From the sequence record NC_020204.1: a stretch of 48,814 nt of DNA. One strand, written 5' to 3'. Origin of the DNA: Klebsiella phage JD001. Of this stretch, positions 90-35,831 are shown one piece after another (position 1 is the first letter of the stretch; every line of letters starts with the position of its first letter). A program made the translations under genes and the position numbers. The notes beneath the pieces are model-generated. The model ran no database searches. It had not been told where the DNA came from and saw only the letters and a list, made by a program, of their open reading frames with translations.

Positions 90-118
90 TTGACACTCAC
101 GTCAAACAATGTAATTAT
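90..118 (+). promoter_or_regulatory. early-type promoter, palindromic -35 TTGACA-CTCA-CGTCAA plus AATTAT -10
   Basis: one-mismatch member of the TTGACG-N4-CGTCAA promoter family found at 9 other sites; 17-nt spacer to -10-like hexamer; fires into a region without a convincing ORF. Confidence 0.35.
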
Positions 119-444
119 TTATTCACAGGCATGTAGCACATGTGTCTTTAGCGGTCCGGGGTGTCCTATTCCTTCGCATCAGCGGGTAGCCGAAATGTGT
201 AGCCAGACATGCACGAATGCGGCTGGTCACCGTGGCGGTTCGACCAATACAACAGGTAAGAGCATTGGGTAATGTCAGCCTTGGTTCGAAGTCGAAAGAC
301 ATGTGGTAATATCCAGCCCAAGTTCCAGTGCTCTTTCCTGTTGTAACCATCGAGTGAGGTGGTCCAATCTTGCTGACGGGTAAGCCGTAAGTGACTGGAG
401 TAATGTTGCAAACCATAATCTCTCTGTTGTGCTCCTCCATGTTT

Positions 445-468
445 GCCCCGGTTCCCGGGGCTTTTTTT
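445..468 (+). terminator. rho-independent terminator (plus orientation)
   Basis: GCCCCGG-TTC-CCGGGGC hairpin followed by TTTTTTT on the plus strand; the minus-strand version lacks a U tract. Confidence 0.6.
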
Positions 469-1117
469 ACAAATCTAAAAGTGTCGTAACCTGATTGGCG
501 ACATTCGTTGCGGCTGTCTTCACATTGATGTAACCACGCTCAATCAGTCCGGATATGGATGTACTGGAAACGTCGTTACTGTTCAGCTGATACTGTGCCG
601 GTTGTGAACCGTTCGCCACGCGGTCAAGAGTGACAATCTGCTGCAGTTCGGCAACAAATATCAGTCCGTTCTCATTCTCCGGGTCTTTAGAGCGCCCGAT
701 ACGCTGAATGACCATATTGTTCAGCGTGATTTCACCCGTATCCACTGTGAATACCTGACCGGAGTACATGAAATCAAGCAAAGTGTTCAGTGTCGTACTG
801 GAGCGAGTTTCGTTTGAGCCGCTCAACCACCCTGCGAACAGACCCGCACCCGCGGCAATGAACGGATTGTCATCGACGAGATTCATCAACGCACCTGTGA
901 AATCAGTGATACTAACTTTCAGTGGGTTGTTCGATACTGCACCCGTCATCGTGTAACGAATAGGCCGATAAATAATGTGATCCGCAATCGGCGTACCTGT
1001 CTCAATGGGATACTGCACAATGTCCACACTGGCGTCAAGGTCATCAGACAGGACAGCATCGAACTGAAGCGACCCAAGCTGTGGGCCGCGCTTTACCAGA
1101 AGGTTAATTAAACTCAT
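467..1117 (-). CDS. putative baseplate/tail assembly protein
   Basis: 216-aa ORF translationally coupled (ATGA overlap) to the upstream hub gene, between the hub and the spike gene in tail-gene order. Confidence 0.4.
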   Translation of the reverse strand: MSLINLLVKRGPQLGSLQFDAVLSDDLDASVDIVQYPIETGTPIADHIIYRPIRYTMTGAVSNNPLKVSITDFTGALMNLVDDNPFIAAGAGLFAGWLSGSNETRSSTTLNTLLDFMYSGQVFTVDTGEITLNNMVIQRIGRSKDPENENGLIFVAELQQIVTLDRVANGSQPAQYQLNSNDVSSTSISGLIERGYINVKTAATNVANQVTTLLDL

Positions 1118-2538
1118 AACATGTACGCCTTACCTTGTCTGAATCGTTCCTCAACACGTCGCCACACGTCACCAACAGTAATGTAACCTTTATAGTCCGT
1201 GTCAAGCCCTGCATTCTGATTGTACGCTGTAGAAGGTGATGAGTACATCACGGTTGTGGAAGGTTTACCGATGAATGCCGGACTGAATACAGCCATGTAC
1301 ACATCGCCCATTGTTTTGTAACGCCCTTTATACTGGTTGAGATAATCAGTAATCGGACCCCTCACCTGTTCGGCTGCGGTCATTGACAGGATAATATTTT
1401 TATTGCGACCGTACTTACTCTGAAATGCACTTGTCCATCCGGTGTCGGTAAACTGAAGCAAGCCCACTGCGCCAGATTTACTGTTCTTCGACTGTGGATT
1501 GAAGTTAGACTCCGCAGAGATTACAGCCATAATCCAATTAGGACTGATGCCCAGGATTTGCCCGAGTTTACGCACCTCGGTACGGAAATCCTGCTGCTGA
1601 CTGGCATCCTCACCCTGTACACCAACACGCCCGTAAATAAGACGATTGCCGACATCACTATTTGTCGTGGTGGTATCCATTGACCCGGCGCGCACAGCTT
1701 TGACAAATGTGTACCAGTCGGGACCATGTGTATCGCCAGTGTGTTGAATGGTCTGAACGTTCCAGTCACCTTCCAGTTTAGCGTCAACGGTTGACTGGAA
1801 CTCCACCGCGCCGAAATCGAATTTAGGCCATTTCGATTCGATGTTAAGTACCGATGCGGGTGTCATACGGGGGTCAAGACGCATTTTAACGTCACAGAAT
1901 ACGCCATCAATGCCGCCGTGAAGCGTGGGCGCATCAATCATCCCGGTCGCGGAACTGATTTTGATGGGAGTGGCTTTACGGTCATCAGATGGAAATCCGA
2001 CGAACACCTGTCCAGCGTACAGATGCCATTCGAAGCCATACGCTTTGGCCAGAATATCAAGTTCTTTGCTAATGTCGGAGCTGACGTTGTAGCCGCCAGC
2101 CATGACAATAGAAGTAAATTTATCCACGCCATTGACAAGGTATAATGGCTTCGACCAGTCCTGTGCGAGACTGGTCAAGACGTCAAACAATGTCACACCC
2201 TTGCCGAAACTCGCACTCGTTGTCCCACCGTCGAGCACATTGCTGCCGCTGCGACACGTCACACGTGTGATGATGTCAGTACCGTCACGAATAGTGAAAA
2301 CGTTGGTGACAAATCCGGTAAAAATCTGACCAATGCGCGACTGATACCCGGCGCGAAAAACAACGGTCTGATTCGGTTCAATCTTCGTTGTGGGTGCGAG
2401 GTTCCACAAACGAAACTCACAGGTACTCAGACTGTCGCCGGTATACGTTGTCACATCGAACGAGCACCGAAGCATCGGGTACGACTGTGTGATGAAATTC
2501 TTTGTGTCAATGAGTATTTCATACTGGCGCAAATCCAT
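1114..2538 (-). CDS. tail/baseplate hub-associated protein with lytic transglycosylase (SLT) domain
   Basis: 474 aa; N-terminal part resembles P2 gpD/Mu hub-type proteins (recall); C-terminal region carries an SLT signature ...AVISAESNFNPQSKNSKSGAVGLLQF...; directly downstream of the tape-measure-like gene. Confidence 0.65.
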   Translation of the reverse strand: MDLRQYEILIDTKNFITQSYPMLRCSFDVTTYTGDSLSTCEFRLWNLAPTTKIEPNQTVVFRAGYQSRIGQIFTGFVTNVFTIRDGTDIITRVTCRSGSNVLDGGTTSASFGKGVTLFDVLTSLAQDWSKPLYLVNGVDKFTSIVMAGGYNVSSDISKELDILAKAYGFEWHLYAGQVFVGFPSDDRKATPIKISSATGMIDAPTLHGGIDGVFCDVKMRLDPRMTPASVLNIESKWPKFDFGAVEFQSTVDAKLEGDWNVQTIQHTGDTHGPDWYTFVKAVRAGSMDTTTTNSDVGNRLIYGRVGVQGEDASQQQDFRTEVRKLGQILGISPNWIMAVISAESNFNPQSKNSKSGAVGLLQFTDTGWTSAFQSKYGRNKNIILSMTAAEQVRGPITDYLNQYKGRYKTMGDVYMAVFSPAFIGKPSTTVMYSSPSTAYNQNAGLDTDYKGYITVGDVWRRVEERFRQGKAYML

Positions 2539-2540
2539 TG

Positions 2541-4780: not shown

Positions 4781-4809
4781 TTGACGGCGGCGTCAAGGTG
4801 GGTTATAGT
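4781..4809 (+). promoter_or_regulatory. early promoter: TTGACGGCGGCGTCAA palindrome (-35), 17-nt spacer, TATAGT (-10)
   Basis: read directly; an extra non-palindromic TTGACG at 4758..4763; 30 nt upstream of the 4840 start. Confidence 0.5.
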
Positions 4810-4839: not shown

Positions 4840-5400
4840 ATGATTCGCGAACAAGACCGTAAAGCATGGCGCAAATTTAAAATTCAGTCGACAGTCATCA
4901 TGGCTGCAGCACTGTCGGCGACAATTTACTGCAACAGCGCCCACGCTGCGACAATCAACGTTGATGTAAGCACGTTAGACAAGCCATATGCGATAACAAT
5001 TCTGAAGAAGTACGATGTGGCTTGTGTGTGGACAAGAAACGAATACGGCAACCTATCGAGTGAAAATGCCGCATACGAGGGTACGGGCGTATGTTGGGAC
5101 GCCACCGCACTGGCAGATGCGGAAAAAAAAGATAAAGAAGGAAAATTGAAATGGATTTCCAACGAGAAATCACCGGAAGAACTGCTCAGGTCGTTGCTAT
5201 CGGATTCAATTGCGGCTTGTGAGGCTGGAATGTATGGTACCGCTACAGGTAACTGGAAACAATACACAGGTATACTCACTTCATTACTCAGTAAATATGG
5301 AGGGAATGCTGGGGCAATGGACAGAATTGGTACGGCTTATGAATACGGTAGGCTGATGAGTAGGTCCAAAGTAGACTGCATAAACTACGTTATGTATTAG
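4840..5400 (+). CDS. secreted protein of unknown function (moron-like, inside tail operon)
   Basis: start chosen at the ATG with RBS GGGGAG (in frame inside track ORF 4798..5400); N-terminus MIREQDRKAWRKFKIQSTVIMAAALSATIYCNSAHA-AT reads as a Sec signal peptide with AHA cleavage site; own promoter and terminator. Confidence 0.5.
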   Translation: MIREQDRKAWRKFKIQSTVIMAAALSATIYCNSAHAATINVDVSTLDKPYAITILKKYDVACVWTRNEYGNLSSENAAYEGTGVCWDATALADAEKKDKEGKLKWISNEKSPEELLRSLLSDSIAACEAGMYGTATGNWKQYTGILTSLLSKYGGNAGAMDRIGTAYEYGRLMSRSKVDCINYVMY

Positions 5401-5424: not shown

Positions 5425-5450
5425 GGGGCCAATTGGCCCCCTTTCGTTTA
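5425..5450. terminator. hairpin terminator between convergent genes (GGGGCC-AATT-GGCCCC then CTTTCGTTT)
   Basis: 6-bp GC stem, T-rich tail on plus strand; lies between the 5400 and 5448 gene ends. Confidence 0.5.
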
Positions 5451-5864: not shown

Positions 5865-5900
5865 AAAACACCTCTTCACATGTGAGGAATCAATTATATT

Positions 5901-6788
5901 ATGAACACAGAAGAATTCATAGCCGAGGCTAGACTGGTTCATGGGGACAGGTACGACTATTCGAAGGCAGTTTATCATTACCGAACCCCCGTGACCATAA
6001 CCTGCAAAATACACGGAGATTTTCAAATTCGCTACGACCACCACATCGGGAAGAAGCGCGGCGGTTGTAGACAGTGCTACTTTGACTCGATGAGGGGAAC
6101 AAAAGAAGAATTCATAGCCAAGGCTAGACTGGTTCATGGGGACAGGTACGACTATTCGAAATTTGAGTACGTAAACTCACAAACCAAATCGATAATCATC
6201 TGCCCAAAACATGGTGAATTCACGCATACTCCCGCATCACATCTCAACAAATGCGGATGCCCTACGTGTAGGAGCATAAGGCAGCGAATCCCGCTATCGC
6301 AGTTTGTTGAAAAAGCAAAATCTATTCATAACAATAAGTATGACTACTCAAAAGCGGTATACAATGGCAGTAACGAATACTTAAAAATAATTTGTCCGGA
6401 ACATGGGATTTTCGAAAAAACTCCGGATAATCATTGTCACAAGACGAGACCTCAAGGGTGTCCAAAATGTGTCGAATACTTTGGATATCGTGACATTCTT
6501 CCGGGGTACTTGTATCTGTTCCTGAGCGATGATTCCAAATTCATAAAGATTGGGATATCGAATAACCCCAAAAAAAGAATAAAAAAATTAAAAAAATCAA
6601 CACCTTTTGACTTTAACGTTTTGGAAATTGTTAAATTTAACGACGGTTCCGAGGCGAGAAAATGGGAAAGGACATTCCACAAAATGTACCAATCGGCTGA
6701 ACTTTCGGGTTTCGATGGGTGTACCGAATGGTTTAAATACGATAAGGCTGTTGCCGATTGGTACAGATGGTTAAAAGGGGCCAAATAG
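5901..6788 (+). CDS. homing endonuclease-like protein: tandem zinc-ribbon DNA-binding modules plus C-terminal T5orf172/GIY-YIG-like domain
   Basis: repeated EEFIA(E/K)ARLVHGDRYDYSK ... C..HG.F......GCP.C modules; C-terminal GYLYLF...IKIGIS...KRIK...F motif block; inserted on the opposite strand between sheath and tube genes. Confidence 0.6.
   Translation: MNTEEFIAEARLVHGDRYDYSKAVYHYRTPVTITCKIHGDFQIRYDHHIGKKRGGCRQCYFDSMRGTKEEFIAKARLVHGDRYDYSKFEYVNSQTKSIIICPKHGEFTHTPASHLNKCGCPTCRSIRQRIPLSQFVEKAKSIHNNKYDYSKAVYNGSNEYLKIICPEHGIFEKTPDNHCHKTRPQGCPKCVEYFGYRDILPGYLYLFLSDDSKFIKIGISNNPKKRIKKLKKSTPFDFNVLEIVKFNDGSEARKWERTFHKMYQSAELSGFDGCTEWFKYDKAVADWYRWLKGAK
5910..5965 (+). repeat. intragenic 56-bp direct repeat, copy 1 (copy 2 at 6105..6160, 1 mismatch)
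   Basis: gaagaattcatagcc(g/a)aggctagactggttcatggggacaggtacgactattcgaa seen twice inside the 5901 gene. Confidence 0.85.
6105..6160 (+). repeat. intragenic 56-bp direct repeat, copy 2
   Basis: see copy 1 at 5910..5965. Confidence 0.85.
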
Positions 6789-9862: not shown

Positions 9863-9891
9863 TTGACGGATTCGTCAACCATTGATACAGT
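9863..9891 (+). promoter_or_regulatory. early promoter: TTGACGGATTCGTCAA palindrome, 17-nt spacer, TACAGT
   Basis: read directly; an additional TTGACGTCA at 9844..9852; upstream of the 9931 gene. Confidence 0.5.
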
Positions 9892-9930: not shown

Positions 9931-10227
9931 ATGGGAAGCCTTGTTGAAGATATCCTGCGTCATGTCCCCACGAAACAATGGCGTAAGAAGTGTGACAGGA
10001 TTGCGTCGCGTGAGTTACATCTCGCGCGAGTTCCCGGGATTCATCACAGGTATGGTAAGTGGGAGGCGGTGGTCTTCTACAGGAATGTCACGCTGACGAT
10101 CGGTTGTTTCAATACTCCACATCGCGCGTTGTTGGCAAGAAAACTGTGGTACTTCTGGCGTGAGCGCGGATTCACTCCGCAGGAGATACCGAAAGGTCCA
10201 AAACGCGAACCATATTCGAGGTCATGA
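9931..10227 (+). CDS. hypothetical early protein
   Basis: 98-aa ORF with a purine-rich RBS region downstream of the 9863 promoter. Confidence 0.4.
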   Translation: MGSLVEDILRHVPTKQWRKKCDRIASRELHLARVPGIHHRYGKWEAVVFYRNVTLTIGCFNTPHRALLARKLWYFWRERGFTPQEIPKGPKREPYSRS

Positions 10228-10358
10228 TGAGAACAAAACACTATCGTAGCTTCTTCATTATCAGAGGTATCGTGGTTGAGGATGAAGGTTATTTATGTGC
10301 TGACAAGGTCATCATGAAGTATTACGGTCGTCACTACGCCGGGAGGATTGGTGAATAA
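10224..10358 (+). CDS. small hypothetical protein (44 aa)
   Basis: ATGA-coupled to the 9931 gene; ends just before the hairpin. Confidence 0.25.
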   Translation: MMRTKHYRSFFIIRGIVVEDEGYLCADKVIMKYYGRHYAGRIGE

Positions 10359-10374
10359 AGCCCCGTGAGGGGCT
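10359..10374. terminator. hairpin AGCCCC-GTGA-GGGGCT between convergent genes
   Basis: 6-bp stem; weak T tracts on both sides. Confidence 0.35.
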
Positions 10375-14357: not shown

Positions 14358-15500
14358 TTATTTAAGTTTACCAGTCTGACGCAGCAGTGCTTCTTGTGCG
14401 CGGGACAGTACAGGTTTTGCGTCGGCTACCGGCTGTTTGATGTCTTTAGCGCCATCTTTAGCCAGTTGCTCAAGCTGTGAGTCTACCACAGGTTTCACCG
14501 GTTCTTCCACAGCCATGTCGAAAGCGGCTTCAACATAGGCGGCAGATTTTTCGGCCCAGTCAACAGACGGACGTTTAACAGCGAGAGCGGCACGTTTGAT
14601 TGCGACCGGGTCCATGCTGTCACAGGTGAATTCATCGCCAGCAACTTTACGCGCTGAGGAGGTAACACGTGCAATTGCTTCCACGCGTGCTTTCAGGGCT
14701 TCGTCGCTGCATTTGGTGGTCAGGTCGGCAACCTGTTCCAGTGCTGCGTCGAGTTGGGCCTGTACGGTTTCTTTGGCGGCTTCGGCGTCACTGACACGCT
14801 GTTCTAAGCGTTTGAACGCGTCCACCACCGCAGCATCCGCCACGTCAACTTTTAGCCCGGTGTCAGTGGTGATTTGATACATGGGTTTTTTCTCCATATT
14901 ATCGAAGATACGCGCCATTGCACCCGCACGAGCACGGTCAACAATTGCAACGTGGTTAATTTTAATCTGAGTCTGTCGGAAGTCGTATGGTTCACCTTCC
15001 GGCGTTGTCCCTGGTGTATCATCATACACCGCCGTGTAACCCGCTGACAACTCACACTTACCAGTTTCAACAGCCTTAATCGCGTCTTTATCCTTGATAA
15101 CCATGTCCACAACGACGAAATCGCCGTCCTGACGACCAACACTCGTTACAACACCGACGGAAGTGTTACGGTACGTGGAAGCATTGATAAGTGTAGGAGG
15201 ATGGTTATTCGTGACATCTGCGCCGAGATAGCTCTGAAGTGATTCATCGTTAAACACTTCTTCGGCGGGACGATACACACGGATAATGTCGTTCGGCGCG
15301 CGGTCTTTCAGTCCCAGTTCCGAAGCGAGATATTCCTGAATACCAGTACGAGCGGCTTTACCCGGCACACGCAGAAATCCCTCATCCGTGTAAACACGTT
15401 GGGAATTCAGTGCAAAACTTTTACGGTCATTGTGTGTTACGGTAATTTGCATGTTGACGAGTCCGTCAGAGTATGCCATAGTGATAATCGTTGAACACAT
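14358..15500 (-). CDS. prohead protease/scaffolding fusion protein
   Basis: N-terminal region with ...INHVAIVDRARAG... resembling DUF2213-type prohead proteases (recall); C-terminal Ala/Glu/Lys-rich coiled-coil typical of scaffolds. Confidence 0.55.
   Translation of the reverse strand: MCSTIITMAYSDGLVNMQITVTHNDRKSFALNSQRVYTDEGFLRVPGKAARTGIQEYLASELGLKDRAPNDIIRVYRPAEEVFNDESLQSYLGADVTNNHPPTLINASTYRNTSVGVVTSVGRQDGDFVVVDMVIKDKDAIKAVETGKCELSAGYTAVYDDTPGTTPEGEPYDFRQTQIKINHVAIVDRARAGAMARIFDNMEKKPMYQITTDTGLKVDVADAAVVDAFKRLEQRVSDAEAAKETVQAQLDAALEQVADLTTKCSDEALKARVEAIARVTSSARKVAGDEFTCDSMDPVAIKRAALAVKRPSVDWAEKSAAYVEAAFDMAVEEPVKPVVDSQLEQLAKDGAKDIKQPVADAKPVLSRAQEALLRQTGKLK
15454..15482 (+). promoter_or_regulatory. 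early promoter: TTGACGAGTCCGTCA palindrome, 17-nt spacer, CATAGT
   Basis: read directly; upstream of the 15529 gene. Confidence 0.45.
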
Positions 15501-15528: not shown

Positions 15529-15993
15529 ATGACCACGTGGAACTACATTATCGGTGACGAGAAAGACTTCGAATGTGCGCCGGATTGGTGTAAGCAGGTG
15601 ATAAGAGAGTTGGGAACTGGCGACATCGGATACGAGGAAAACTGTAACGGTTTGCAAAGTGTGGGGGACAGAATTTGGTGGCCCAATGAGTCAAGTCTTG
15701 ATAATTGCAATACGCTTGATGAAAGAGATGTTAACGGTACTTCCAACATTGAAATTATCGCTCAACGCGAACCTGTAGCAACCAATGACAGCAAATACAA
15801 TCGCCCTTGTAAGGGTATCACTATTGACGTTTATGACGTTCTCAAAGCGTTCAATGTCACATGTCCCGCACTTCAACACCTGATTAAAAAGGCTTTAGCG
15901 GTCGGCCAGCGTGGACACAAGGACGCAAGTGAAGATTTAAAAGACATCCTGGCGAGCGCCAAACGTGCAATTGAACTGTCGGAGGGTGAGTAA
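15529..15993 (+). CDS. hypothetical early protein
   Basis: 154 aa from the ATG with RBS AGGAG (in frame inside track ORF 15430..15993); Cys-rich N-terminus. Confidence 0.45.
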   Translation: MTTWNYIIGDEKDFECAPDWCKQVIRELGTGDIGYEENCNGLQSVGDRIWWPNESSLDNCNTLDERDVNGTSNIEIIAQREPVATNDSKYNRPCKGITIDVYDVLKAFNVTCPALQHLIKKALAVGQRGHKDASEDLKDILASAKRAIELSEGE

Positions 15994-16191
15994 ATGAACA
16001 TCACGTGGTTTAGCCGTAAATTTACATATAATTGGTTCATGTGCCTGCTGGGGGTATGGTGTGCTAAATGGTTCGGAATGGATGATGCCCTATGGTGGAC
16101 ATTGATTCCCGCATTGTCTTTCGGTTTATCGAGAGATACCGAGTATTCACACGGATATTGGTTCTTAGAAAATAAGGAGAACAACAAATGA
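15994..16191 (+). CDS. small membrane protein (65 aa)
   Basis: RBS GGAGGGTGAG; Trp/Phe-rich hydrophobic segments. Confidence 0.4.
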   Translation: MNITWFSRKFTYNWFMCLLGVWCAKWFGMDDALWWTLIPALSFGLSRDTEYSHGYWFLENKENNK

Positions 16192-16373
16192 ACACACCAT
16201 ACGCATACGAAGTGACAACTAACCGCGGTACGACATATCTGGTCCGCGCGGGCAGTGTGGCGCATAACAACGCTGTTATGTTCGGGTATCAATTGAAACC
16301 GTTGTATGAGGGTGACGAAATGACATGTTATGTAACCCACTGGCAACCATTGCCCGAGCCGCCGCAGGAGTGA
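16188..16373 (+). CDS. small hypothetical protein (61 aa)
   Basis: RBS AAGGAGAA; ATGA-coupled. Confidence 0.4.
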   Translation: MNTPYAYEVTTNRGTTYLVRAGSVAHNNAVMFGYQLKPLYEGDEMTCYVTHWQPLPEPPQE

Positions 16374-16430
16374 TGTTATGGAATATTTACTCCTTTGTGT
16401 CGGCGTTGTGATTTGGGTCGTATATTTAAG

Positions 16431-16460: not shown

Positions 16461-16492
16461 CAGTTCATCAACAACAGAGAGGGTGAGACAAA

Positions 16493-18941: not shown

Positions 18942-18948
18942 ACACATG

Positions 18949-21027: not shown

Positions 21028-22476
21028 TTATAAAATCTCCGAAACGGTTGCTTTGCCATTGTGGAGCATTTGACTAATTGCATCACACATTGGGTCAATC
21101 TGGTCATCGTGAGCGTGTGTATCATCGGCAGTGAACGCTTCACACTCCGTAACGAAGTCATGAACCCATGGGGCATCTTCGGGTATCTTAACATATCCTG
21201 ACTCAATGTAACCCTGTACGTCCATCACACGGGTTAATTTATTTGCCGCCGGTCCACGTGGTATCTCCCGCACGGGTATCACGGGCTTAATTTTGCGGCG
21301 AATCTTCTGGATAAGTTCTGTACCGGATGATTTATCTTCGACAGCCATGTAACGTAAACGACCGTTTTTATCATTGCGGTGTTTGTTCCAGAAGTCAGGG
21401 ATTTTTACCTCAAGCTCATACGCTTCGAACTTGTCACGCATGACGTCGAGGAGATACAGATATCCATCCTCACCGAGTCCCCACAGTTCGGCAACCTGAT
21501 AGTCGTTATGCTCTTTGGCTTTCTGTGCCGTATCGATGAATACCGCTTTGTATTTCAGTTTCGGTACAACGGTGTAACGTCCGAACCATGACCCCTTCAG
21601 AATGCCACCTCCAAGCGGTGAGGGGCGTTGCTGCATCTGACCGGAGAACATGTACGAGTTTTTCTTCTGCATCGCCTTGAGGGCCTCCAGAGAGTGTTTC
21701 TGGGGCCACAATGCGCGCTCTGTCGGTAAACCTTCATCGACAATGGCGGGGAGTACCAGGTGACGGAAATTATACTCCTCGTCCTTCAGCAGTGTGCCGC
21801 AGAAGTCCTCTTCGTGAAGACGCTGCATGATGACGATACACGGTGTCTTCGTGGAGTTAAAACGTGATTTGATTGTTTCATCCCAGCGACGGTTAACACC
21901 GTTACGTTTTGGGTCAGAATACGCATCATCTGGTTTTAACGGGTCATCGATGATAATCGCACCGCCAAAGCCGTTACCGTTCTCAAAGTCGTCCAGTTTA
22001 CCGGCACCGAAACCGGTGATAGGACCGCCCGCCGCCGTCGCATAGAACACACCACCCTGGTCAGTACCCCATGCCTTCTTCGAATCCTTGTTCGCCTTAA
22101 TGGCCACATGAGGCCACAGTTTCTGAAACTCTTCGGACTTCAAAACTGACTTAATTGATTCAGAGTTATCCAGTGCGAGAATATCGGCATAGGACAGATG
22201 AATAAATTCACACTTGGGGTTTTTAACGTAGCACCATGCGGAAAATAACTTTACAGCCAGTTCGGTTTTTGAATAACGCGGCGGCATATTAATTATTAAA
22301 TGAGTGGTGCGACCGTAAAACACATCCATCAACGCATCACAAATTACATGATGATGGTCACTGAATACAAATTTAGTCCCTTTTAAAACTTTGAAAAAGA
22401 AACGAGCGAATAAAGTGAAATCTTCCTCAAGTGCGAGGCGCAGTAATTTTAATTCTTTTGGGGAATCAAAATTCAT
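21028..22476 (-). CDS. terminase large subunit
   Basis: 482 aa; deviant Walker A (NMPPRYSKTE) in the N-terminal ATPase part, acidic nuclease-type C-terminal half; adjacent to small terminase and portal. Confidence 0.85.
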   Translation of the reverse strand: MNFDSPKELKLLRLALEEDFTLFARFFFKVLKGTKFVFSDHHHVICDALMDVFYGRTTHLIINMPPRYSKTELAVKLFSAWCYVKNPKCEFIHLSYADILALDNSESIKSVLKSEEFQKLWPHVAIKANKDSKKAWGTDQGGVFYATAAGGPITGFGAGKLDDFENGNGFGGAIIIDDPLKPDDAYSDPKRNGVNRRWDETIKSRFNSTKTPCIVIMQRLHEEDFCGTLLKDEEYNFRHLVLPAIVDEGLPTERALWPQKHSLEALKAMQKKNSYMFSGQMQQRPSPLGGGILKGSWFGRYTVVPKLKYKAVFIDTAQKAKEHNDYQVAELWGLGEDGYLYLLDVMRDKFEAYELEVKIPDFWNKHRNDKNGRLRYMAVEDKSSGTELIQKIRRKIKPVIPVREIPRGPAANKLTRVMDVQGYIESGYVKIPEDAPWVHDFVTECEAFTADDTHAHDDQIDPMCDAISQMLHNGKATVSEIL

Positions 22477-22957: not shown

Positions 22958-22966
22958 ATTTTACCA
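22958..22966 (-). promoter_or_regulatory. candidate late promoter -10 (extended -10-like TGGTAAAAT) for the head/packaging operon
   Basis: read on the minus strand, 18 bp downstream of the repeat edge, ~35 nt upstream of the start. Confidence 0.3.
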
Positions 22967-22983
22967 TGACTGTACCGTCATTG

Positions 22984-23279: not shown

Positions 23280-23309
23280 TTGACCTGTAATTCTCTATTA
23301 TTTTATAGT
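23280..23309 (+). promoter_or_regulatory. sigma70-like promoter TTGACC, 17/18-nt spacer, TATAGT
   Basis: read directly 11 bp right of repeat copy 2; upstream of the 23335 gene. Confidence 0.45.
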
Positions 23310-23334: not shown

Positions 23335-23913
23335 ATGATTCATCTTATAGATAATTGTCACGGCACTACAAAATTTAAAGAAACAGAATTGTGCAGTATT
23401 TGTGCACTTCATGACCACCATGATTTTGTGAAAGCGAAAAACATGGGCCTTCCCGCACGCAATGAACTCTATCAGAAAGTTCTCGACGGTCTTAATGATG
23501 GTCGCTCATGGAGAGTACAGAAGAAACCGAACAGTGAATGTGGACATCCGGGCGTCCGTAACACTGCTGGTAAATGCGTCTTTTGCTTGACCGAGCAACG
23601 CATGACGGGGGAGTGGAAAAAACCAAAAGCAACCATTGTTGACACCGCTGGTGAAGCCGACGCATTGCGTGAAAACATTGCCATGATTGAGCATAATATT
23701 TCTGTTTTGAATGAACAGTTAGAGACGATGAAAAACGCCCTGTTACTGAGTGAATCGGGAATTCACGTTGGGGTCATTAAAATCAAATCACCGCGCCAGC
23801 AGGCCATCGCTGACGGCAAACGCTGGTATATTCCGTATGAGCCTTGCAAGCATTGTAATATTATTGCGGAACGTTATGTGGCAAATGGTAAATGCCGTAA
23901 TTGTGGGAGATAA
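23335..23913 (+). CDS. Cys-rich putative zinc-binding protein
   Basis: 192 aa with CxxC/CxxC pairs at both ends (CSICALHDHH, GKCVFC, CKHC, GKCRNC) and a central coiled-coil; RBS AAGGAGAG. Confidence 0.45.
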   Translation: MIHLIDNCHGTTKFKETELCSICALHDHHDFVKAKNMGLPARNELYQKVLDGLNDGRSWRVQKKPNSECGHPGVRNTAGKCVFCLTEQRMTGEWKKPKATIVDTAGEADALRENIAMIEHNISVLNEQLETMKNALLLSESGIHVGVIKIKSPRQQAIADGKRWYIPYEPCKHCNIIAERYVANGKCRNCGR

Positions 23914-23917
23914 TAAA

Positions 23918-24091
23918 ATGTACAAGATGAGTAAGAAAAGTCTCACTGGGAGGATAATCGTACTACCTGTATTCATTATTATTTTAGTTGTTGAGTCGAT
24001 ACTAAATAAGGCCGATGACTGGAGTTACTCCGTGAAGAGATTGAGAATTAGGATGAACGAATGGATTGATAAAAAATTTCCACTTGGATAA
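23918..24091 (+). CDS. small single-TM membrane protein (57 aa)
   Basis: hydrophobic LTGRIIVLPVFIIILVVESIL segment; in frame within track ORF 23750..24091. Confidence 0.35.
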   Translation: MYKMSKKSLTGRIIVLPVFIIILVVESILNKADDWSYSVKRLRIRMNEWIDKKFPLG

Positions 24092-24097
24092 AACAAA

Positions 24098-24122
24098 GCC
24101 CGCTAAATGCGGGCCTTTTATT
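24098..24122. terminator. bidirectional rho-independent terminator
   Basis: GCCCGC-TAAAT-GCGGGC with CTTTTATTT on plus and TTTGTTTT on minus, between convergent genes. Confidence 0.7.
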
Positions 24123-27141: not shown

Positions 27142-27171
27142 AAAGATAACCCACCTTGACGGACTCGTCAA
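27142..27171 (-). promoter_or_regulatory. early promoter (minus orientation): TTGACGGACTCGTCAA palindrome, 17-nt spacer, TATCTT
   Basis: read on the reverse complement; the spacer GGTGGGT is identical to the 4781 promoter. Confidence 0.45.
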
Positions 27172-27180
27172 CACTATTCG

Positions 27181-27202
27181 CAAAAAAAGCCCCGAAGGGC
27201 TT
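27181..27202 (-). terminator. rho-independent terminator of the primase-helicase gene
   Basis: AAGCCC-CGAA-GGGCTT hairpin overlapping the stop codon, followed by TTTTTTTG on the minus strand. Confidence 0.6.
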
Positions 27203-29580: not shown

Positions 29581-29898
29581 TTAAAGCAGGGTGGTCAGCG
29601 CGCGGGCGCGTAGCTCCAGTGGCGCGGATTTGGCAACGCTATCACCCAGCGCCATCCCCTGTCCAATCAATTCGAGGTTTTCTTCTTCTACTGCTCGTTG
29701 CATCACTGCTTCACGAAGTGCGGACATCTTAACCCAGTGATGGTTGACGCTTCCCATAGCCACACCGGCTTCAGCCGCAACACCATCGCGGGTAAGAGTG
29801 CCAAAGCCGTCGCGCTGTGCCATCGTGTAAGCTACTTCTAAAATGTATTCTTTCCTCATGAGTTCGGTTCCATTAGGTAATTTATTGCAGTATGGCAC
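29581..29898 (-). CDS. small TetR-family-like HTH regulator
   Basis: ...ILEVAYTMAQRDGFGTLTRDGVAAEAGVAMGSVNHHW... matches the TetR N-terminal HTH signature; only ~92 aa if started at the Met at 29859. Confidence 0.45.
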   Translation of the reverse strand: MPYCNKLPNGTELMRKEYILEVAYTMAQRDGFGTLTRDGVAAEAGVAMGSVNHHWVKMSALREAVMQRAVEEENLELIGQGMALGDSVAKSAPLELRARALTTLL

Positions 29899-29913
29899 AG
29901 GTTGACGGGGTGG

Positions 29914-30198
29914 TCAATCCCTTACCCTGTCGTTCAGCATCTGTTGGAGTTTTTTGGATGCCAGCACAATTACGTCCGCATTGTACAATTCTTGTCTTTC
30001 GTAAGCCAAAAGGTTAGCTCCTTGACTGGTTGAGACACCCGTGCAGAATCGCTTACTGAAAATACGTATCAATTCGACCAGTTGTTTCTCTCCGCCGGAT
30101 TGTAAAATTAACTCGACGAGTGTTTCGTACTGCCCGTTGTGTTTTTCAGCGGAACTACTTTCTACACCACATAGGTTACATCTGCACATACCCATCAC
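29914..30198 (-). CDS. hypothetical protein with N-terminal CxxC pair
   Basis: 94-aa ORF, ATGA-coupled. Confidence 0.35.
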   Translation of the reverse strand: MMGMCRCNLCGVESSSAEKHNGQYETLVELILQSGGEKQLVELIRIFSKRFCTGVSTSQGANLLAYERQELYNADVIVLASKKLQQMLNDRVRD

Positions 30199-30696: not shown

Positions 30697-30725
30697 ATGT
30701 TAGTGCGTTTTGACGAGTCCGTCAA
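30697..30725 (-). promoter_or_regulatory. early promoter (minus orientation): TTGACGGACTCGTCAA palindrome, 17-nt spacer, TAACAT
   Basis: read on the reverse complement; drives the 30665 start; overlaps the 3' end of the helicase gene. Confidence 0.45.
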
Positions 30726-33396
30726 CGTCATTTTGTATTTTTTCCATAAGTGTTAGTGCATCATCTTTTTTCAGGCCTTGTGCACTCAACCAGTCGACGT
30801 GATAAGTCAGGAAAAATTTACGAAATATTTCTTTGTCGCTCATGCCGTCGTGTCGCCAGTAACCGGCAATAGTCGCCATCAGACCATCCAGTCGTCCCAG
30901 CACTTCCAGGCGCTCACTTTGACGCTTGACATTAGCCATCACTCCAGCGGGTGGTACATTCATCGCCGTCAGCCTGTTGCGCATTGCCTCGGGTGTCTCA
31001 CGTGCTCCCACAACCTCATTGCGCATCTGTGCCAGTACATCCGGGTCAAGCTCGTACAGGTCGCCGTCCACCTGCATCGGGCCGGAGCGGTCTGCCGGTT
31101 TAGGTACAGGCTCGCCGCAGTCCGGACATGCGTCGAGGAACCGCTCATACACTGCCGCACAAGCTGTACACACGCGCACCGTCGATGGTTCACTTTTACC
31201 CGTGCGACGCTCCCGGCGGTCAAGACTCCACTCACGCGGTGCATCCGGTAAACCGTGGCGCATAACGTTGCCCACATGATCAATAATAATCGCGTGGGTT
31301 TTGCCTGGTAACGGTCTGAGGGCGCGACCAAACATTTGACTGTACATACTGTACGATTCGGTTGGACGACCAAATGAAACAACCTCAATACCGGGGCAAT
31401 CAAAACCCTCAGTCAGAATTTCCGAGTTAACTAACTGTAATATCTCTTTATTTTTAAATTTTCGCACTGCTGCGAATCGTTCAAGGTCAGGAGTGTTACA
31501 GCTTATTGCCGCTGCCGGCACACCTGCTTTATTATATTGTTCCGCGATTTCCTCAGCACTCGCCACGTCGACGGTGAATGTCACGCCTGATTTACCACGG
31601 GCAATTTTCAGATATTGAGCAACAACATCACCAGTGATGGTTTTCTCATCGTGTGCCACCAGTGATGAACCGTTAACGACTTCGCGCATCTGGTTCAGGT
31701 TAAAATCCCCCGTGGACTCACTCACTTTAATTTGTTCACGTGAGAAACTACTCGGAGGTGCGAAGATTTTATAATCGGTCAGATACCCATCTCGTATGAG
31801 TTCCCCCATTGCCACGCCTTCGAACATTGTGTCAAACACGCCATCCGCGTGACTCCCCAGACCGTTACCATCCGCACGACACGGTGTAGCTGTAACCCCC
31901 AGCCCGCGAGCATTGGGAAACATCTGTACAGCCTTACCCCATTTGTTATCTTTAAGTACATGGTGCGCCTCATCGATGACCCACAGACGAACAGACGGTA
32001 ACCAGTTAGCAAGTTGCTCACCGCGCCGGATAATTGTATCCACACTGGCAACCGCGTGTTTACTTCCAGCGTCGTAAAATGTCTTACCCAGTTCGTCCAT
32101 GTGAATCTTCACGCAGTTTTTCACGGTTTTATTCGAACCGACAATACGGTGATAGATACCGTTTTTGGCAAGCGTGAGACTCATCTGGCTGACAAGTTCC
32201 TGGCGGTGCGCAATAGCACATGTCGCACCTTGTTCAGCAGCGATGATAGATGAGAAAATTACCGTGTTATGCGTAACAGTGAAATCACCCAACATGAACA
32301 ATCTGTCACCATCTATTTCAAATCCGTAGTAATCGTCCACTTCAAGTGGTTCGACTTTAATTCCAGTGACTAAAACAGATTTCTTCTGTTTCCTTTCCAC
32401 GACATTGTCTTTGTGTCGATTGCGCACGAATGGTAAACCAGAGAAATCACCGCTAATGGTCATGCGCCAGTAATCACCAGTAAACCCGTTTTGACAGCTT
32501 TTTTTACATGGTTTCATGTAACAAGCAAACCCCAGCGAGCGAGCGATAAAAGTCAAATCATCTGCGAGCTGTTTGACTTTCAGAGTCACCTCGAAATAAC
32601 CGTTCGACAAGTAACCGTCACTATCAAGTAACCCCGCGAGAACTTGTTCTCGAACCCGACGAGAAGTGGTTTTATAAACCTCAGGGATATGTTTATTGAG
32701 ATACAAATTGTATTTTCTTAACGCTGAAAGCATTGACCCCGTGTGCTTACCGTCTTTCGGCAAGAAATATGTCTGAGCTTTATTGTCCGGTCGATTCCTG
32801 AATTCTCTCACCCGGTGACCAGTTTCATTAGCGTAATTGTAGATGTATTCGACTATTTCACTGTCTGCAGTCGTTATCGCAGCCCCATTCGAATTGCCAT
32901 CACCTAACCACAATCCCAGTAAATACGGAGGTAGAATTGGGTCAAAATCTTTCTCATCCCAATCGACAGCGGCACGCCAACCCTTGTAAAGGTGTTTCCA
33001 GTGTTTTGATTTATTCAAATAGTCACGTACTGAAATGTTTTCTATCTCCCCGACCTTATCGTCACGCCCTGTGTTCGTGCGCTTGAGACTGAGAATATGA
33101 CTCTCATTAACTACATACGGGTCACCCTTGACGGGTGTTACTTTGTACATTTGTTCACGGCCTCTCGCCAAAGAAAGTACCCGGCGAGGCTTACTGTCAG
33201 GCCCCATTAAAGTGTCGCCCACGATTATATTTTCCACGGGGGTTATCGTCCCATCGTACATTAGCACAGGTGTCCCCTTACCCAGACATTTGCCCCCACC
33301 AGTGGCGAGTACCGCAAGTGCCTTACCGGTCGGATGTGCTGAGTGGTATTCGTTCAGTTTATCTACTATCGATTGTTGATACGGTCGTAACTGCAT
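30700..33396 (-). CDS. SF2 (DEAH-box) DNA helicase interrupted by an intein
   Basis: LRPYQ...ATGGGK|C...HN|TVIF: Walker A GGGKT reconstituted on intein removal; motif II VIDEAHH; motif III GVTATP. Confidence 0.8.
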   Translation of the reverse strand: MQLRPYQQSIVDKLNEYHSAHPTGKALAVLATGGGKCLGKGTPVLMYDGTITPVENIIVGDTLMGPDSKPRRVLSLARGREQMYKVTPVKGDPYVVNESHILSLKRTNTGRDDKVGEIENISVRDYLNKSKHWKHLYKGWRAAVDWDEKDFDPILPPYLLGLWLGDGNSNGAAITTADSEIVEYIYNYANETGHRVREFRNRPDNKAQTYFLPKDGKHTGSMLSALRKYNLYLNKHIPEVYKTTSRRVREQVLAGLLDSDGYLSNGYFEVTLKVKQLADDLTFIARSLGFACYMKPCKKSCQNGFTGDYWRMTISGDFSGLPFVRNRHKDNVVERKQKKSVLVTGIKVEPLEVDDYYGFEIDGDRLFMLGDFTVTHNTVIFSSIIAAEQGATCAIAHRQELVSQMSLTLAKNGIYHRIVGSNKTVKNCVKIHMDELGKTFYDAGSKHAVASVDTIIRRGEQLANWLPSVRLWVIDEAHHVLKDNKWGKAVQMFPNARGLGVTATPCRADGNGLGSHADGVFDTMFEGVAMGELIRDGYLTDYKIFAPPSSFSREQIKVSESTGDFNLNQMREVVNGSSLVAHDEKTITGDVVAQYLKIARGKSGVTFTVDVASAEEIAEQYNKAGVPAAAISCNTPDLERFAAVRKFKNKEILQLVNSEILTEGFDCPGIEVVSFGRPTESYSMYSQMFGRALRPLPGKTHAIIIDHVGNVMRHGLPDAPREWSLDRRERRTGKSEPSTVRVCTACAAVYERFLDACPDCGEPVPKPADRSGPMQVDGDLYELDPDVLAQMRNEVVGARETPEAMRNRLTAMNVPPAGVMANVKRQSERLEVLGRLDGLMATIAGYWRHDGMSDKEIFRKFFLTYHVDWLSAQGLKKDDALTLMEKIQNDVDGLVKTH
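32266..33288 (-). other. intein (341 aa) with LAGLIDADG homing endonuclease domain
   Basis: starts with Cys directly after GGGK, ends ...TVTHN followed by Thr; two LAGLIDADG motifs (LLGLWLGDGN and LAGLLDSDGYL). Confidence 0.75.
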
Positions 33397-33473
33397 GATG
33401 CTTTCCTCACCCTGTTGTAATAGTCGATTACATTACCTGACCCAGTTGATGGTTGTCAAATTTAAAATTAGTG

Positions 33474-33502
33474 TTGACGGCTGCGTCATGGTGGTATAGA
33501 GT
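33474..33502 (+). promoter_or_regulatory. early promoter: TTGACGGCTGCGTCA palindrome, 17-nt spacer, TAGAGT
   Basis: read directly; upstream of the 33537 start. Confidence 0.5.
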
Positions 33503-33536
33503 TCACCACATCGACAACAACGGAGGACAGAGAGAC

Positions 33537-34430
33537 ATGAGTAATATCACATTAACCATCCCGAACGACGACCACATTGCGCTGCGTGCGTTCGGTAAAG
33601 CACTGGAAGAAATGGCACTCGCGCATGGTGCTGAGCCACGCAAGACCGTCGGTGAACTGTCGTATAAATTGAACATTGACACGAGCGCAGCGACTGCTGC
33701 GCTGGAGCGTCTCAATGCTGCCACTGGCGAATTAATGCAAGCCGCGCCGCAAATGATGGGTGAGGCAGAAATTGACACCACCGCTCAACAGGTTGAGTCG
33801 CTGGCTGCGCCAATGGTGGACGATGAAGAGCAAACGCCACCCACCACCGACTCAACCGGTACACCGTGGGACGAGCGTATCCACTCCGCCAGCAAAGCGC
33901 TCAATGCGGACGGTACGTGGCGTCTGCGTCGTAAGCCGAAGGATATGGATGAGGAGCAGTGGGTGGCATTTGTTGAGACGGTTAAACTGGAACTGAACCA
34001 CGGTGAAGAAATCCGTGAAGCAATGGATAAAGCTGAACGTGGCGAAGCTGTTTATTATACCAGTGAAGAAGCTGAACAGAAGATGGACGAATTTAAAGAG
34101 TCTGTGCGTCAAAGCATCGAACCACCTGTAACACCGCCGGGCGATGATTTCCACACCGATGCAGACGTGGTAACCGAGCAAACTGTTGTAGGTATTCCAC
34201 CACTGCCTGTACCACCACCGGTAGTTGTTGCGCCACCTGTACCGGAAGTGGTGGAGTGGGACTTCCCGCGCCTCATGACCTTCCTGACCGAGCGTCACGG
34301 CAAGATTGATGTGGCAACGGTGAACACGCTGCTGGCGCAGGATGGTATGTCGTCGGTGCAGGAACTGAACGCCCACCCGGATAAAATCGGTCCGTTCGTG
34401 GCACGTGTTAAAGCGCATTTGGGGGAGTAA
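33537..34430 (+). CDS. acidic, proline-rich hypothetical protein carrying the GTPWDERIH motif
   Basis: 297 aa from the ATG with RBS GGAGGACAGAGAG; PVPPPVVVAPPVP linker; GTPWDERIH at 33858..33884. Confidence 0.45.
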   Translation: MSNITLTIPNDDHIALRAFGKALEEMALAHGAEPRKTVGELSYKLNIDTSAATAALERLNAATGELMQAAPQMMGEAEIDTTAQQVESLAAPMVDDEEQTPPTTDSTGTPWDERIHSASKALNADGTWRLRRKPKDMDEEQWVAFVETVKLELNHGEEIREAMDKAERGEAVYYTSEEAEQKMDEFKESVRQSIEPPVTPPGDDFHTDADVVTEQTVVGIPPLPVPPPVVVAPPVPEVVEWDFPRLMTFLTERHGKIDVATVNTLLAQDGMSSVQELNAHPDKIGPFVARVKAHLGE

Positions 34431-34436
34431 TAAAAT

Positions 34437-34682
34437 ATGTCTGACAAAGTAATCGCGTATATGACGTCTGACAGAAAAATGTTGATTTTCGCAGACTCAC
34501 CAAACATGTTGAACGCTGATAAAACTGGACTTATACCATTATTTGAAGATAACACCCTGTCATGTGACCGTGCATACGTTGCTGGTCTCAAGAATGGTTA
34601 TGGTCTGGGTCAGTATGACAACGAGTCTGAGTTTCAGGAAACTGTCGAACGTTATCAAAAGCATATGAGGGAATATGACTAA
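34437..34682 (+). CDS. hypothetical protein
   Basis: 81-aa ORF. Confidence 0.35.
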   Translation: MSDKVIAYMTSDRKMLIFADSPNMLNADKTGLIPLFEDNTLSCDRAYVAGLKNGYGLGQYDNESEFQETVERYQKHMREYD

Positions 34683-35799
34683 TTTACCCAAAGTATCCGA
34701 TGCTTCCATGTGGATGTCCTGTAACGGGTCATTCCGGGCGCAACAGGCTTATCCACCACTGGACGTTGAACCGTCGCAGTCACGTCTCGAAGGGCGTGCT
34801 GCACACGAAGTGGCTCAGAAGTTATTCAAAAATGAGCCATTCAGTGACCTGGTGGGCAGTCTGTCAAAGGATGGAATTGTCATCACGGATGAACTGTTTG
34901 ACGCTGCCCGTGAGTATTTTAACGAGGTGTGGGGCTTCTGTAACACGCATGGGCGACTGCACGACCTTCACGTTGAGGAAGTGTGTCCTGTGCCGGGTTA
35001 CGGCGACTGGTACTGCATTCCCGATGCGTGGGTGTATGTACCGGAAGGGAAGGTGTTACGCGTCTGGGATGCTAAATTCGGTCATCGCATTGTTGACCCG
35101 TTTGAAAATTGGCAGTTGTTGATCGAAGCATTCAGTATCTGTGAACAATTCCAGACACCGCCGGACATTATCGAACTGGTCATCGTGCAGCCTCGCGGAT
35201 TCACCAGTGACGGTACGGTGCGCAAATGGGCGCTCACATATGATGAATTGTGTGCATACCGGCAGCAGGTGAACGAGACGATGTCCCGCGTACTGGATGT
35301 CACGCCGATGTGTACACCCGGACCACATTGTCTCGATTGTAGCGCGCGTGCACACTGTGACACGCTGAAGCAACAGAGTTATGTCGGTATCGATTACGTA
35401 CAGTCGTTACAGACGCACAACCTGTCCGGTCATGCACTGGGTGTTGAATTGCGACTCCTGCAACGGGCGCAGGAGATGATTAAAATGCGCCTCAGTGGTC
35501 TGGAGGAACAAGCGCTGCACGAGATTAAACAGGGGCAACACGTGACGTTCTACAGTGCTAAAACCACGTACGGTCGTAAGCGCTGGAAGAAAGATGTTCC
35601 GGTGGACCAGGTAATTATGATGGGGGATTTACTCGGTCAGAATTTGCGTAAGCCGCAGGAACTGGACACACCCGCACAGTGTGTGAAAAAAGGTATCGAC
35701 CCGTCCGTTATTGAACAGTACGCCGAAACACCCGTCACGGGTGTCAAGCTGGAACAGGTCGATGAACGTGCAATTAAAAATGTGTTTTCCCGAAAATAG
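34675..35799 (+). CDS. PD-(D/E)XK nuclease with C-terminal Cys cluster (Cas4/RecB-like)
   Basis: ...CIPDAWVYVPEGKVLRVWDAKFG... nuclease core; four C-terminal Cys (CTPGPHCLDCSARAHC). Confidence 0.5.
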   Translation: MTNLPKVSDASMWMSCNGSFRAQQAYPPLDVEPSQSRLEGRAAHEVAQKLFKNEPFSDLVGSLSKDGIVITDELFDAAREYFNEVWGFCNTHGRLHDLHVEEVCPVPGYGDWYCIPDAWVYVPEGKVLRVWDAKFGHRIVDPFENWQLLIEAFSICEQFQTPPDIIELVIVQPRGFTSDGTVRKWALTYDELCAYRQQVNETMSRVLDVTPMCTPGPHCLDCSARAHCDTLKQQSYVGIDYVQSLQTHNLSGHALGVELRLLQRAQEMIKMRLSGLEEQALHEIKQGQHVTFYSAKTTYGRKRWKKDVPVDQVIMMGDLLGQNLRKPQELDTPAQCVKKGIDPSVIEQYAETPVTGVKLEQVDERAIKNVFSRK

Positions 35800-35802
35800 T
35801 TG

Positions 35803-35831
35803 TTGACGTACCCGTCAAACTAACGTAGTAT
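35803..35831 (+). promoter_or_regulatory. early promoter: TTGACGTACCCGTCAA palindrome, 17-nt spacer, TAGTAT
   Basis: read directly; followed by a 7-bp stem hairpin GGGAGAC-AGAGG-GTCTCCC (35842..35860) in the 5' UTR. Confidence 0.5.

Follow-up and report, generated by a model that had tools for sequence, protein, structure and literature searches.

A dyad over the -35 box of eleven predicted early promoters of Klebsiella phage JD001, with a 92-aa TetR-like protein as candidate regulator

Genome setting

The genome of Klebsiella phage JD001 (NC_020204.1) contains 11 sigma70-type promoters in which the -35 box forms the left half of a 16-bp dyad, TTGAC(G)-N4-(C)GTCA(A), and a gene for a small TetR-like protein that is a candidate for the regulator acting at this dyad. 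The analysed stretch of 48,814 bp, referred to below as the window, is a complete Klebsiella myophage genome of the Jedunavirus type, circularly permuted. Its identity is 99.7% to Kpn112 in the part common to both and 97–98% to RCIP0081, while KpV79 (NC_042041) is a well-annotated relative, whose GenBank record has 29-nt 'promoter' features at several dyad sites. The phage group has been described as lytic (PMC8472413). The structural genes occupy the minus strand in two tracts, one descending from ca. 22.9 kb to 0.47 kb and the other from the right end to ca. 42.5 kb; the baseplate-spike gene, also on this strand, runs across the ends of the window, with its start at position 53 and its remainder at the right end. 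Replication functions are encoded in the interval from 24 to 41 kb. Jedunavirus-type phages are under development against Klebsiella pneumoniae, and their expression programme is undescribed.

Dyad promoters of the window

The exact motif TTGACGNNNNCGTCA is found at 9 places (14 strand-matches) in the window, with 0.05 expected, and none of 100 shuffled sequences reached 14. The exact sites are located at 4781, 9863, 15454, 16431, 18563, 33474, and 35803 on the plus strand and at 27156 and 30710 on the minus strand. Two further sites, at 90 (plus) and 29902–29917 (minus), have one mismatch each and bring the number of dyad promoters to 11. The scan thus bore out the palindrome family described in the initial annotation of this DNA, with two corrections to its list of ten: the site at 90 is not exact, and the member at 29902–29917 had been missed. 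The promoters and the genes they are predicted to drive are as follows.

90–118, plus strand: P90, dyad TTGACActcaCGTCAA at 90–105, -10 hexamer AATTAT at 113–118, directed into the gene-free gap 54–466
4781–4809, plus strand: P4781, dyad TTGACGgcggCGTCAA, 17-nt spacer, -10 TATAGT; drives 4840–5400 (186 aa, no assigned function)
9863–9891, plus strand: P9863, dyad TTGACGgattCGTCAA, -10 TACAGT; drives 9931–10358; annotated as a promoter in KpV79
15454–15482, plus strand: P15454, dyad TTGACGagtcCGTCAG, -10 CATAGT; drives 15529–16373
16431–16460, plus strand: P16431, dyad TTGACGagttCGTCAG, 18-nt spacer, -10 TATACT; drives 16493–17024, followed by the terminator at 17046–17064; annotated in KpV79
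18563–18591, plus strand: P18563, dyad TTGACGacctCGTCAG, -10 TAGAGT; drives 18618–18941 and 19001–19621 (endonuclease VII/HNH-like); annotated in KpV79
27143–27171, minus strand: P27171, dyad TTGACGagtcCGTCAA, -10 TATCTT; drives the block from 27106 down to 24132
29889–29917, minus strand: promoter of the regulator gene, variant dyad TTGACCaccCCGTCAA at 29902–29917, TG-extended -10 CATACT at 29889–29894
30697–30725, minus strand: P30725, dyad TTGACGgactCGTCAA, -10 TAACAT, within the last helicase codons; drives 30665–29914 (a nuclease and a 93-aa ORF, i.e., open reading frame)
33474–33502, plus strand: P33474, dyad TTGACGgctgCGTCAT, -10 TAGAGT; drives 33537–35799, including an exonuclease gene; annotated in KpV79
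35803–35831, plus strand: P35803, dyad TTGACGtaccCGTCAA, -10 TAGTAT; drives the gene of a Gp2.5-like single-strand-binding protein (35886–36698) and the following genes; annotated in KpV79

Each of the 11 sites has the anatomy of a sigma70-type promoter, that is, a -35 box (always TTGAC followed by G, A, or C), a spacer of 17 ± 1 nt, and a -10 hexamer with A at the second and T at the sixth position. The spacer is of 17 nt at 10 sites and of 18 nt at 16431, as the 17–18 nt given earlier implied, and the -10 hexamers match TATAAT at 3–5 of the 6 positions; their earlier description as TA(T/G/C)AGT-like fits only about half of the 11 sites. It follows from the 17-nt spacer that the dyad spans positions -35 to -20, with its centre at -27.5. 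The distance from the end of the -10 hexamer to a start codon preceded by a ribosome-binding site, as read from the sequence, is 27–55 nt.

All 11 sites are intergenic or overlap a neighbouring gene by no more than its first or last few codons. A selection-free scan for TTGAC followed by a -10 hexamer gave 22 candidates in the window, 12 of which have GTCA at offset +11; these are the 11 dyad sites and the opposite strand of 4781. Bidirectional use of the -35 box was rejected as a general property, since 4781 alone has a plausible -10 on the opposite strand (TTGACG, 16 nt, AATGAT). Among the 10 candidates devoid of GTCA, 8 lie inside genes and two are intergenic:

33430–33459, minus strand: promoter of the helicase operon, without a dyad, TTGACA, 18-nt spacer, -10 TAATGT
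23280–23309, plus strand: P23280, without a dyad, TTGACC, 18-nt spacer, -10 TATAGT; drives 23335–24091 (no assigned function)

Three degenerate dyads, at 22966, 36997, and 38612, have no promoter.

The genes driven include those for replication, namely the intein-containing helicase, the nuclease, the TetR-like protein, primase, a 297-aa conserved protein, the exonuclease, the Gp2.5-like single-strand-binding protein, a split B-family polymerase, and a DNA-repair exonuclease; the last, together with an HNH-AP2 endonuclease, is a product of the P27171 block. The initial view of the sites as sigma70-type promoters at the head of small gene blocks agrees with this gene content and with the promoter features of KpV79. 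The same is true of its statement that most blocks end at a terminator, six of which were located (445–461, 5425–5440, 10359–10374, 17046–17064, 24095–24117 on the minus strand, and 27187–27202 on the minus strand).

The last of these terminators follows the primase gene and, with P27171 immediately after it, forms a terminator–promoter composite at 27143–27202 (minus strand), in which AAGCCCTTCGGGGCTTTTTTTGCGAATAGTG is followed by TTGACG; the junction, tttttgca(a)t..gtg/gta TTGACG, is kept in the phages PEAT2, AAM22, and MSW-3. Moreover, the leaders downstream of P4781, P16431, P27171, and P33474 (e.g., 33503–33536) share the motif CATCgACAACAACaGAGAGG, which is A/C-rich and runs on to the ribosome-binding site. 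This motif is also present in leaders of PEAT2, AAM22, and MSW-3.

Conservation of the right half-site

TGACG-N4-CGTCA is the top palindrome in the window (10 occurrences), KpV79 (10), RCIP0081 (11), Pectobacterium phage PEAT2 (12), and Pantoea phage AAM22 (10). Three more distant phages have an excess of the shorter form TGAC-N6-GTCA, of which less than one copy is expected in each: Vibrio phage CP-T1 has 9, Edwardsiella phage MSW-3 has 12, and Acinetobacter phage Scuro has 5. In all these genomes the dyad lies at the -35 box with a -10 hexamer 16–18 nt further on, i.e., in one register.

The selection acting on the right half was assessed in 40 related loci of the strict clade, which yielded 374 non-redundant candidates of the TTGAC plus -10 type. 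GTCA is present at offset +11 in 180 of them, but only in 0–2 at every other offset from 6 to 20 and in 11 at offset 21. Information content was calculated for the 142 non-redundant promoters, out of the 180, with a 17-nt spacer. The C at -25, which played no part in choosing the promoters, does not vary at all (2.0 bits), while the N4 centre reaches only 0.2–0.6 bits and the remainder of the spacer does not exceed 1 bit. Across the 40 loci CGTCA, the right half, is as invariant as the -35 box. RNA polymerase is not known to need CGTCA at -25 to -21, and its conservation therefore indicates that something else reads the right half.

A second register of the dyad was found in three phages. In each of these, namely KpV79, PEAT2, and Scuro, the helicase-operon promoter has a copy overlapping its -10/+1 region (e.g., CACAATGACGgaagCGTCAA and CATAATGACAttatTGTCAA), and in Scuro this copy doubles as the -35 box of a divergent promoter. 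Such a position suits a repressor but would be meaningless for an activator. Together with the invariant C at -25 and the nearly free centre, it upholds the earlier contention that the symmetry goes beyond what the polymerase requires.

The TetR-like protein

The candidate regulator is encoded ahead of the primase gene:

29581–29859, minus strand: 92-aa protein with a TetR_N helix–turn–helix (HTH) domain at residues 6–52 and a helical tail of ca. 40 aa

The Pfam domain TetR_N (PF00440) is recognised at residues 6–52 with 29.1 bits (cut-off 24). A profile search of the PDB found only N-terminal domains of TetR regulators (E = 7.6e-10), and the matches cover only residues ca. 9–66 of chains 186–220 aa long. 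The ligand-binding and dimerisation domain that makes up the C-terminal part of canonical TetR proteins (ca. 190–220 aa in all) has no counterpart in the 92-aa protein, which belongs to the PHROG 8723 family. The initial annotation had placed a small TetR-like HTH protein at 29581–29898 and linked it to the motif. The HTH and the link stood, but the gene likely starts at ATG 29859 and not at GTG 29898, because the close homologues are all of 92 aa and the longer ORF would take in the -10 hexamer of its own promoter.

Homologues were found in 95 phage records. The TetR-like gene precedes the primase gene in all 8 motif-bearing genomes examined, and a dyad promoter lies directly upstream of it in 7 of the 8. 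In 34 of 37 IMG/VR loci (protein identity 97–57%) the upstream site is TTGACC-N4-CGTCAA, more precisely always TTGACC-A(C/T)NC-CGTCAA, and a TTGACC site is present in four further genomes. Two Edwardsiella-type loci (33–34% identity) have TTGACA...CGTCAA at this place, and one IMG/VR locus has no site. In most IMG/VR loci the C..C variant is confined to this upstream site, the other 4–8 sites per locus being of the G..C type. An operator at the regulator's own promoter and a palindromic operator of ca. 15–17 bp are both characteristic of the TetR family; the former is found here, and TTGACG-N4-CGTCAA has 16 bp.

The sequence of the recognition helix also varies with the inner base of the half-site. 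The helix (S/T)(V/I)NHH(W/F/Y) goes with G..C half-sites, TVLRYY of Scuro goes with A..T at 5 of 5 sites (TTGACA-N4-TGTCA), and in CP-T1 (TVSFAF) and MSW-3 (IVSYYY) the inner base is free. The nomination of the TetR-like protein as the candidate regulator is thus strengthened by its synteny with the motif, by the variant operator upstream of its gene, and by the joint change of helix and half-site in Scuro. Pfam and PHROG searches with 37 ORFs of the window, mostly of early products, revealed as a possible further regulator only a marginal winged-helix match in the 380-aa exonuclease.

With a limit of E <= 1e-10, a profile search of 1.84 billion representative sequences gave 642 clusters. The best 150 of these 642 representatives are, with few exceptions, either 82–122 aa or ca. 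162–179 aa long. Members of the longer class (ca. 50 of the best 150, and the product of 21424–21924 in Scuro) mostly have two stretches matching the 92-aa profile, and Pfam recognised one TetR_N domain in each of the three longer homologues searched. The longer homologues may be a tandem, single-chain version of the regulator.

Proposed mechanism

It is regarded as probable, if only just, that the host sigma70 promoters of the dyad family are shut off by a dimeric mini-TetR protein bound at the dyad, in a Cro-like manner and with negative autoregulation. Upon infection, the host sigma70 RNA polymerase would fire the 11 promoters at once. Each of them would contain the 16-bp operator at -35 to -20, with the -35 hexamer itself as the left half. 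The 92-aa TetR_N protein, made from these same promoters, would accumulate, and its dimer on the dyad would keep sigma region 4 off the -35 box, so that early transcription, that of its own gene included, would then be turned down. The variant operator TTGACC at its own gene presumably has a different affinity. We infer binding, dimerisation, repression, and the early timing from sequence comparison.

Such a shut-off could be of consequence for late transcription. Several of the early cassettes face the late operons head-on, and continued firing would therefore be expected to collide with late transcription; at 15454 and 18563 they abut late-gene starts, in the case of P15454 the start codon of the oppositely oriented late protease gene. 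More tentatively, and as an idea that we hold to be doubtful, the mini-TetR family (ca. 90–110 aa, an HTH and a short helical tail with no effector domain; in some members ca. 165 aa) might be a self-contained timing device of a multi-genus lytic clade, in which every strong early promoter would automatically be half an operator through its -35 hexamer. Conserved single-base variants of the operator (C at the regulator's own promoter, A at P90, whose predicted transcript covers the gene-free gap) would in this case grade affinity and set the order of shut-off; the head-on orientation of the cassettes towards the late operons would make the shut-off necessary. KpV79, RCIP0081, PEAT2, and AAM22 likewise have an A at the sixth position of the P90 dyad.

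Several observations weigh against repression by this protein. The helicase-operon promoter and P23280 of the window carry no dyad. The covariation of helix and half-site is clean in one lineage only, that of Scuro. The phages Psp6, R9Y1, CKB-S1, and 367.14 encode a TetR-like homologue and have no promoter-associated dyad; the palindrome excess seen in these four genomes lies in GC-rich coding sequence and was judged compositional. The protein is devoid of the C-terminal domain by which canonical TetR proteins dimerise. Its AlphaFold2 model has a mean pLDDT of 74.6, with the recognition helix below 50, and a Foldseek search of the PDB with this model gave no match at E <= 0.001. As the model is weak and has no structural match, the dimer is an assumption. 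Finally, no transcriptome or start-site data for this phage group were found in the literature.

Most likely the dyad serves the TetR-like protein as a repressor site for turning off the early genes, which is an ordinary kind of control, though one undescribed for this phage group. The promoters are in part already known from the KpV79 annotation, while the roles of operator and regulator, as deduced here, would be new for the group. In the literature searched, neither the dyad motif nor a function of the regulator is described; Comeau et al. (2012) go no further than listing 'tetR-like cellular regulators' in phiPLPE, CP-T1, and 138 (PMC3391216). If the proposed mechanism is true, one 92-aa protein and one 16-bp site control all the replication and accessory genes in phages of at least five host genera, and the many small TetR_N proteins that have no annotation (PHROG 8723; 642 cluster representatives) gain a function. 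For engineering, it would also supply a small repressor/operator pair that needs no effector and whose operator is at once a -35 box. The dyad provides a simple annotation rule for early promoters in these genomes.

Comparison with known systems

The closest parallel in regulatory logic is lambda Cro, which turns off PR and PL through OR and OL. In both cases a small phage HTH protein, dimeric in Cro and putatively so here, is made from early promoters and has dyad operators overlapping them. The two systems differ in fold (TetR_N here, the Cro fold in lambda) and in the arrangement of operators, with at least 11 single dispersed operators here and two tripartite ones in lambda. Moreover, no CI partner or lysogeny switch was seen, in keeping with a phage group described as lytic. 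P1 C1 and gp71 of mycobacteriophage L5, the latter acting at 'stoperators', are immunity repressors of temperate phages with asymmetric sites. They resemble the proposed system in that one regulator serves a dozen or so dispersed sites, some inside structural-gene regions, but the sites described here are symmetric and situated on the -35 box, and the phages that have them form a lytic group.

RutR of E. coli, a TetR-family protein, binds the 16-bp dyad TTGACCAnnTGGTCAA (PMC2475637). The phage system shares with it the HTH family, the operator length, and the outer pentamers TTGAC...GTCAA, and in both systems the regulator gene has an operator of its own. The 92-aa phage protein, however, is devoid of the ca. 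130-aa ligand-binding and dimerisation domain of RutR, and therefore no effector control is expected. In addition, the inner bases are CG here and CCA/TGG in RutR, and the phage operator doubles as the -35 box.

In their surroundings the promoters recall the PeSLs of T4-type phages, repeated strong sigma70-type promoter cassettes associated with small non-essential genes in hypervariable regions among core genes (PMC2839356, PMC4122927). The cassettes of the window likewise flank hypervariable genes (0–20% versus 85–100% coverage, see below). Unlike PeSLs, they have no separate strong terminator stem-loop, the dyad lying inside the promoter with a predicted stability, as RNA, of only -4 to -8.5 kcal/mol; a true terminator adjoins P27171 only. 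The position of the dyad, with its centre at -27.5, differs from that of a class II CRP/FNR-type activator site (centre near -41.5), and spacers of 17 nt, or of 18 nt in one case, differ from the 19–20 nt of MerR-type promoters.

Alternative explanations

The dyad could be an operator read by another protein, either a small phage product or host RutR, which we consider unlikely. Most early proteins have no function assigned by Pfam or PHROG, and one of them could be the true binder, a further point against the TetR-like protein. As to RutR, its consensus has the length and the outer bases of the phage dyad, and the site of the regulator gene, TTGACCACCCCGTCAA, agrees with it at 12 of 14 positions, its left half TTGACCA being a perfect RutR half-site. 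Nevertheless, the motif spans phages of Klebsiella, Vibrio, and Acinetobacter hosts, and the TetR-like gene is the only conserved DNA-binding gene identified in all these genomes. Its recognition helix changes along with the half-site in Scuro, and the TetR-like genes carry their own operator (TTGACC in 34 of 37 IMG/VR loci, TTGACA in two). Still less probable is that the TetR-like protein is an activator and the dyad promoters are 'middle' ones, the true early promoters being 33459 (minus) and 23280 (plus). The TetR-like gene does lie downstream in the operon of the dyad-free promoter 33459, and the dyad centre at -27.5 is close to the position of the box used by T4 MotA, at -30 of middle promoters. 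The dyad promoters, however, have a -35 box matching at 5 or 6 of 6 positions, the optimal 17-nt spacer, and a usable -10 hexamer, and should therefore need no help. The copies over the -10/+1 region in KpV79, PEAT2, and Scuro can only hinder the polymerase, and members of the TetR family are overwhelmingly repressors.

A reading of the palindrome as a nucleic-acid structure or a recombination hotspot (a hairpin, a cruciform, or a PeSL-like cassette) with no protein reader is very improbable. Close relatives do have sharply different cassette genes behind these promoters, 27143–27202 is a true terminator-plus-promoter composite, and PeSLs are a known precedent (PMC2839356). Yet the dyad hairpins are weak; in CP-T1 and MSW-3 the fifth pair is often mismatched, which leaves a 4-bp stem with a 6-nt loop, while TGAC/GTCA is still fixed; and the Scuro switch is the only compensatory change observed. 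The sequence is thus kept rather than the pairing, which indicates a protein site, and the hairpin or terminator interpretation was rejected on account of low stability and non-conserved pairs. Recombination at the promoters may be a side effect, and it leaves the fixed register to the -10 hexamer unexplained. It is scarcely credible, finally, that these are plain promoters whose second half-site was carried along as promoter copies spread. Some promoters do share extended similarity (4781 and 27171 both have CGTCAAggtgggtTAT), but across genera the centre and the distal spacer are near-random while CGTCA is invariant, and the dyad recurs in a different register at another promoter. Repression at the dyad by the TetR-like protein remains the reading that we prefer.

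Accessory cassettes and neighbouring elements

Four of the cassettes, composed of small ORFs or homing-endonuclease-like genes (4840–5400, 9931–10358, 15529–17024, and 18618–19621), run against the direction of the tail and head modules that enclose them. At the nucleotide level, several of the blocks are covered to 0–20% in KpV79 or PEAT2, and the flanking core genes to 85–100%. Their opposite orientation and their gene content, varying between close relatives, are in line with the scattered autonomous cassettes depicted in the initial annotation.

The gap 54–466 (ca. 410 bp), into which P90 is directed, contains no annotated gene in RCIP0081, KpV79, PEAT2, AAM22, or CP-T1, and the minus-strand ORF 123–440 has no PHROG match. 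The gap is closed by the terminator at 445–461, which works on the plus strand only, and the predicted plus-strand transcript runs from about 124 to 466 (ca. 340 nt). It folds better than its shuffled versions (z = -3.05), and conservation of its first ca. 130 nt extends through Jedunavirus and PEAT2 and, weakly, to AAM22 and CP-T1. Rfam searches (at gathering thresholds, and permissive ones on 1–520) and ARAGORN revealed nothing beyond terminator look-alikes. The gap transcript is a candidate early non-coding RNA.

Within the gap, 249–344 is a 96-bp imperfect hairpin with the terminal inverted repeats ACAACAGGTAAGAGCA...TGCTCTTTCCTGTTGT. Copies with 96–98% identity and sharp boundaries occur at intergenic spots of unrelated phages, i.e., Klebsiella LASTA, the E. 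coli podophage ShWW44, and ca. 79 Salmonella seszw/PSH-1 records; this element accounts for the Salmonella matches obtained in the first BLAST search. It is absent from KpV79, and a shorter related sequence takes its place in PEAT2. The element looks like a small mobile, MITE-like one.

The helicase gene (30700–33396, minus strand; 898 aa) contains an intein with Hom_end_hint and LAGLIDADG homing-endonuclease domains, while the KpV79 helicase has 557 aa and no intein. The region upstream of the intein-bearing gene differs accordingly and lacks the downstream dyad of KpV79 and PEAT2. Another homing-endonuclease-like gene (5901–6788, plus strand; 295 aa, GIY-YIG/T5orf172/MUG113) lies between the tail tube and sheath genes, is absent from all 4 relatives compared, and has its own non-dyad promoter-like site at 5875–5902. 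The ORF 38766–39596 (plus strand) splits the B-family DNA polymerase gene into 37246–38769 and 39583–40179. It has no nucleotide similarity in KpV79, RCIP0081, PEAT2, or AAM22, and KpV79 has an annotated endonuclease at the equivalent place. The degenerate dyad CTGACGgggcCGTCAT at 38612 is located 150 nt upstream of this ORF, and RCIP0081 has there a dyad with a different centre.

The degenerate dyad at 22966–22981, ATGACTgtacCGTCAT, lies 42 nt upstream of the terS start (22924) and has no promoter. It is kept in KpV79, RCIP0081, and PEAT2 and could be a weak operator or a packaging-related site.

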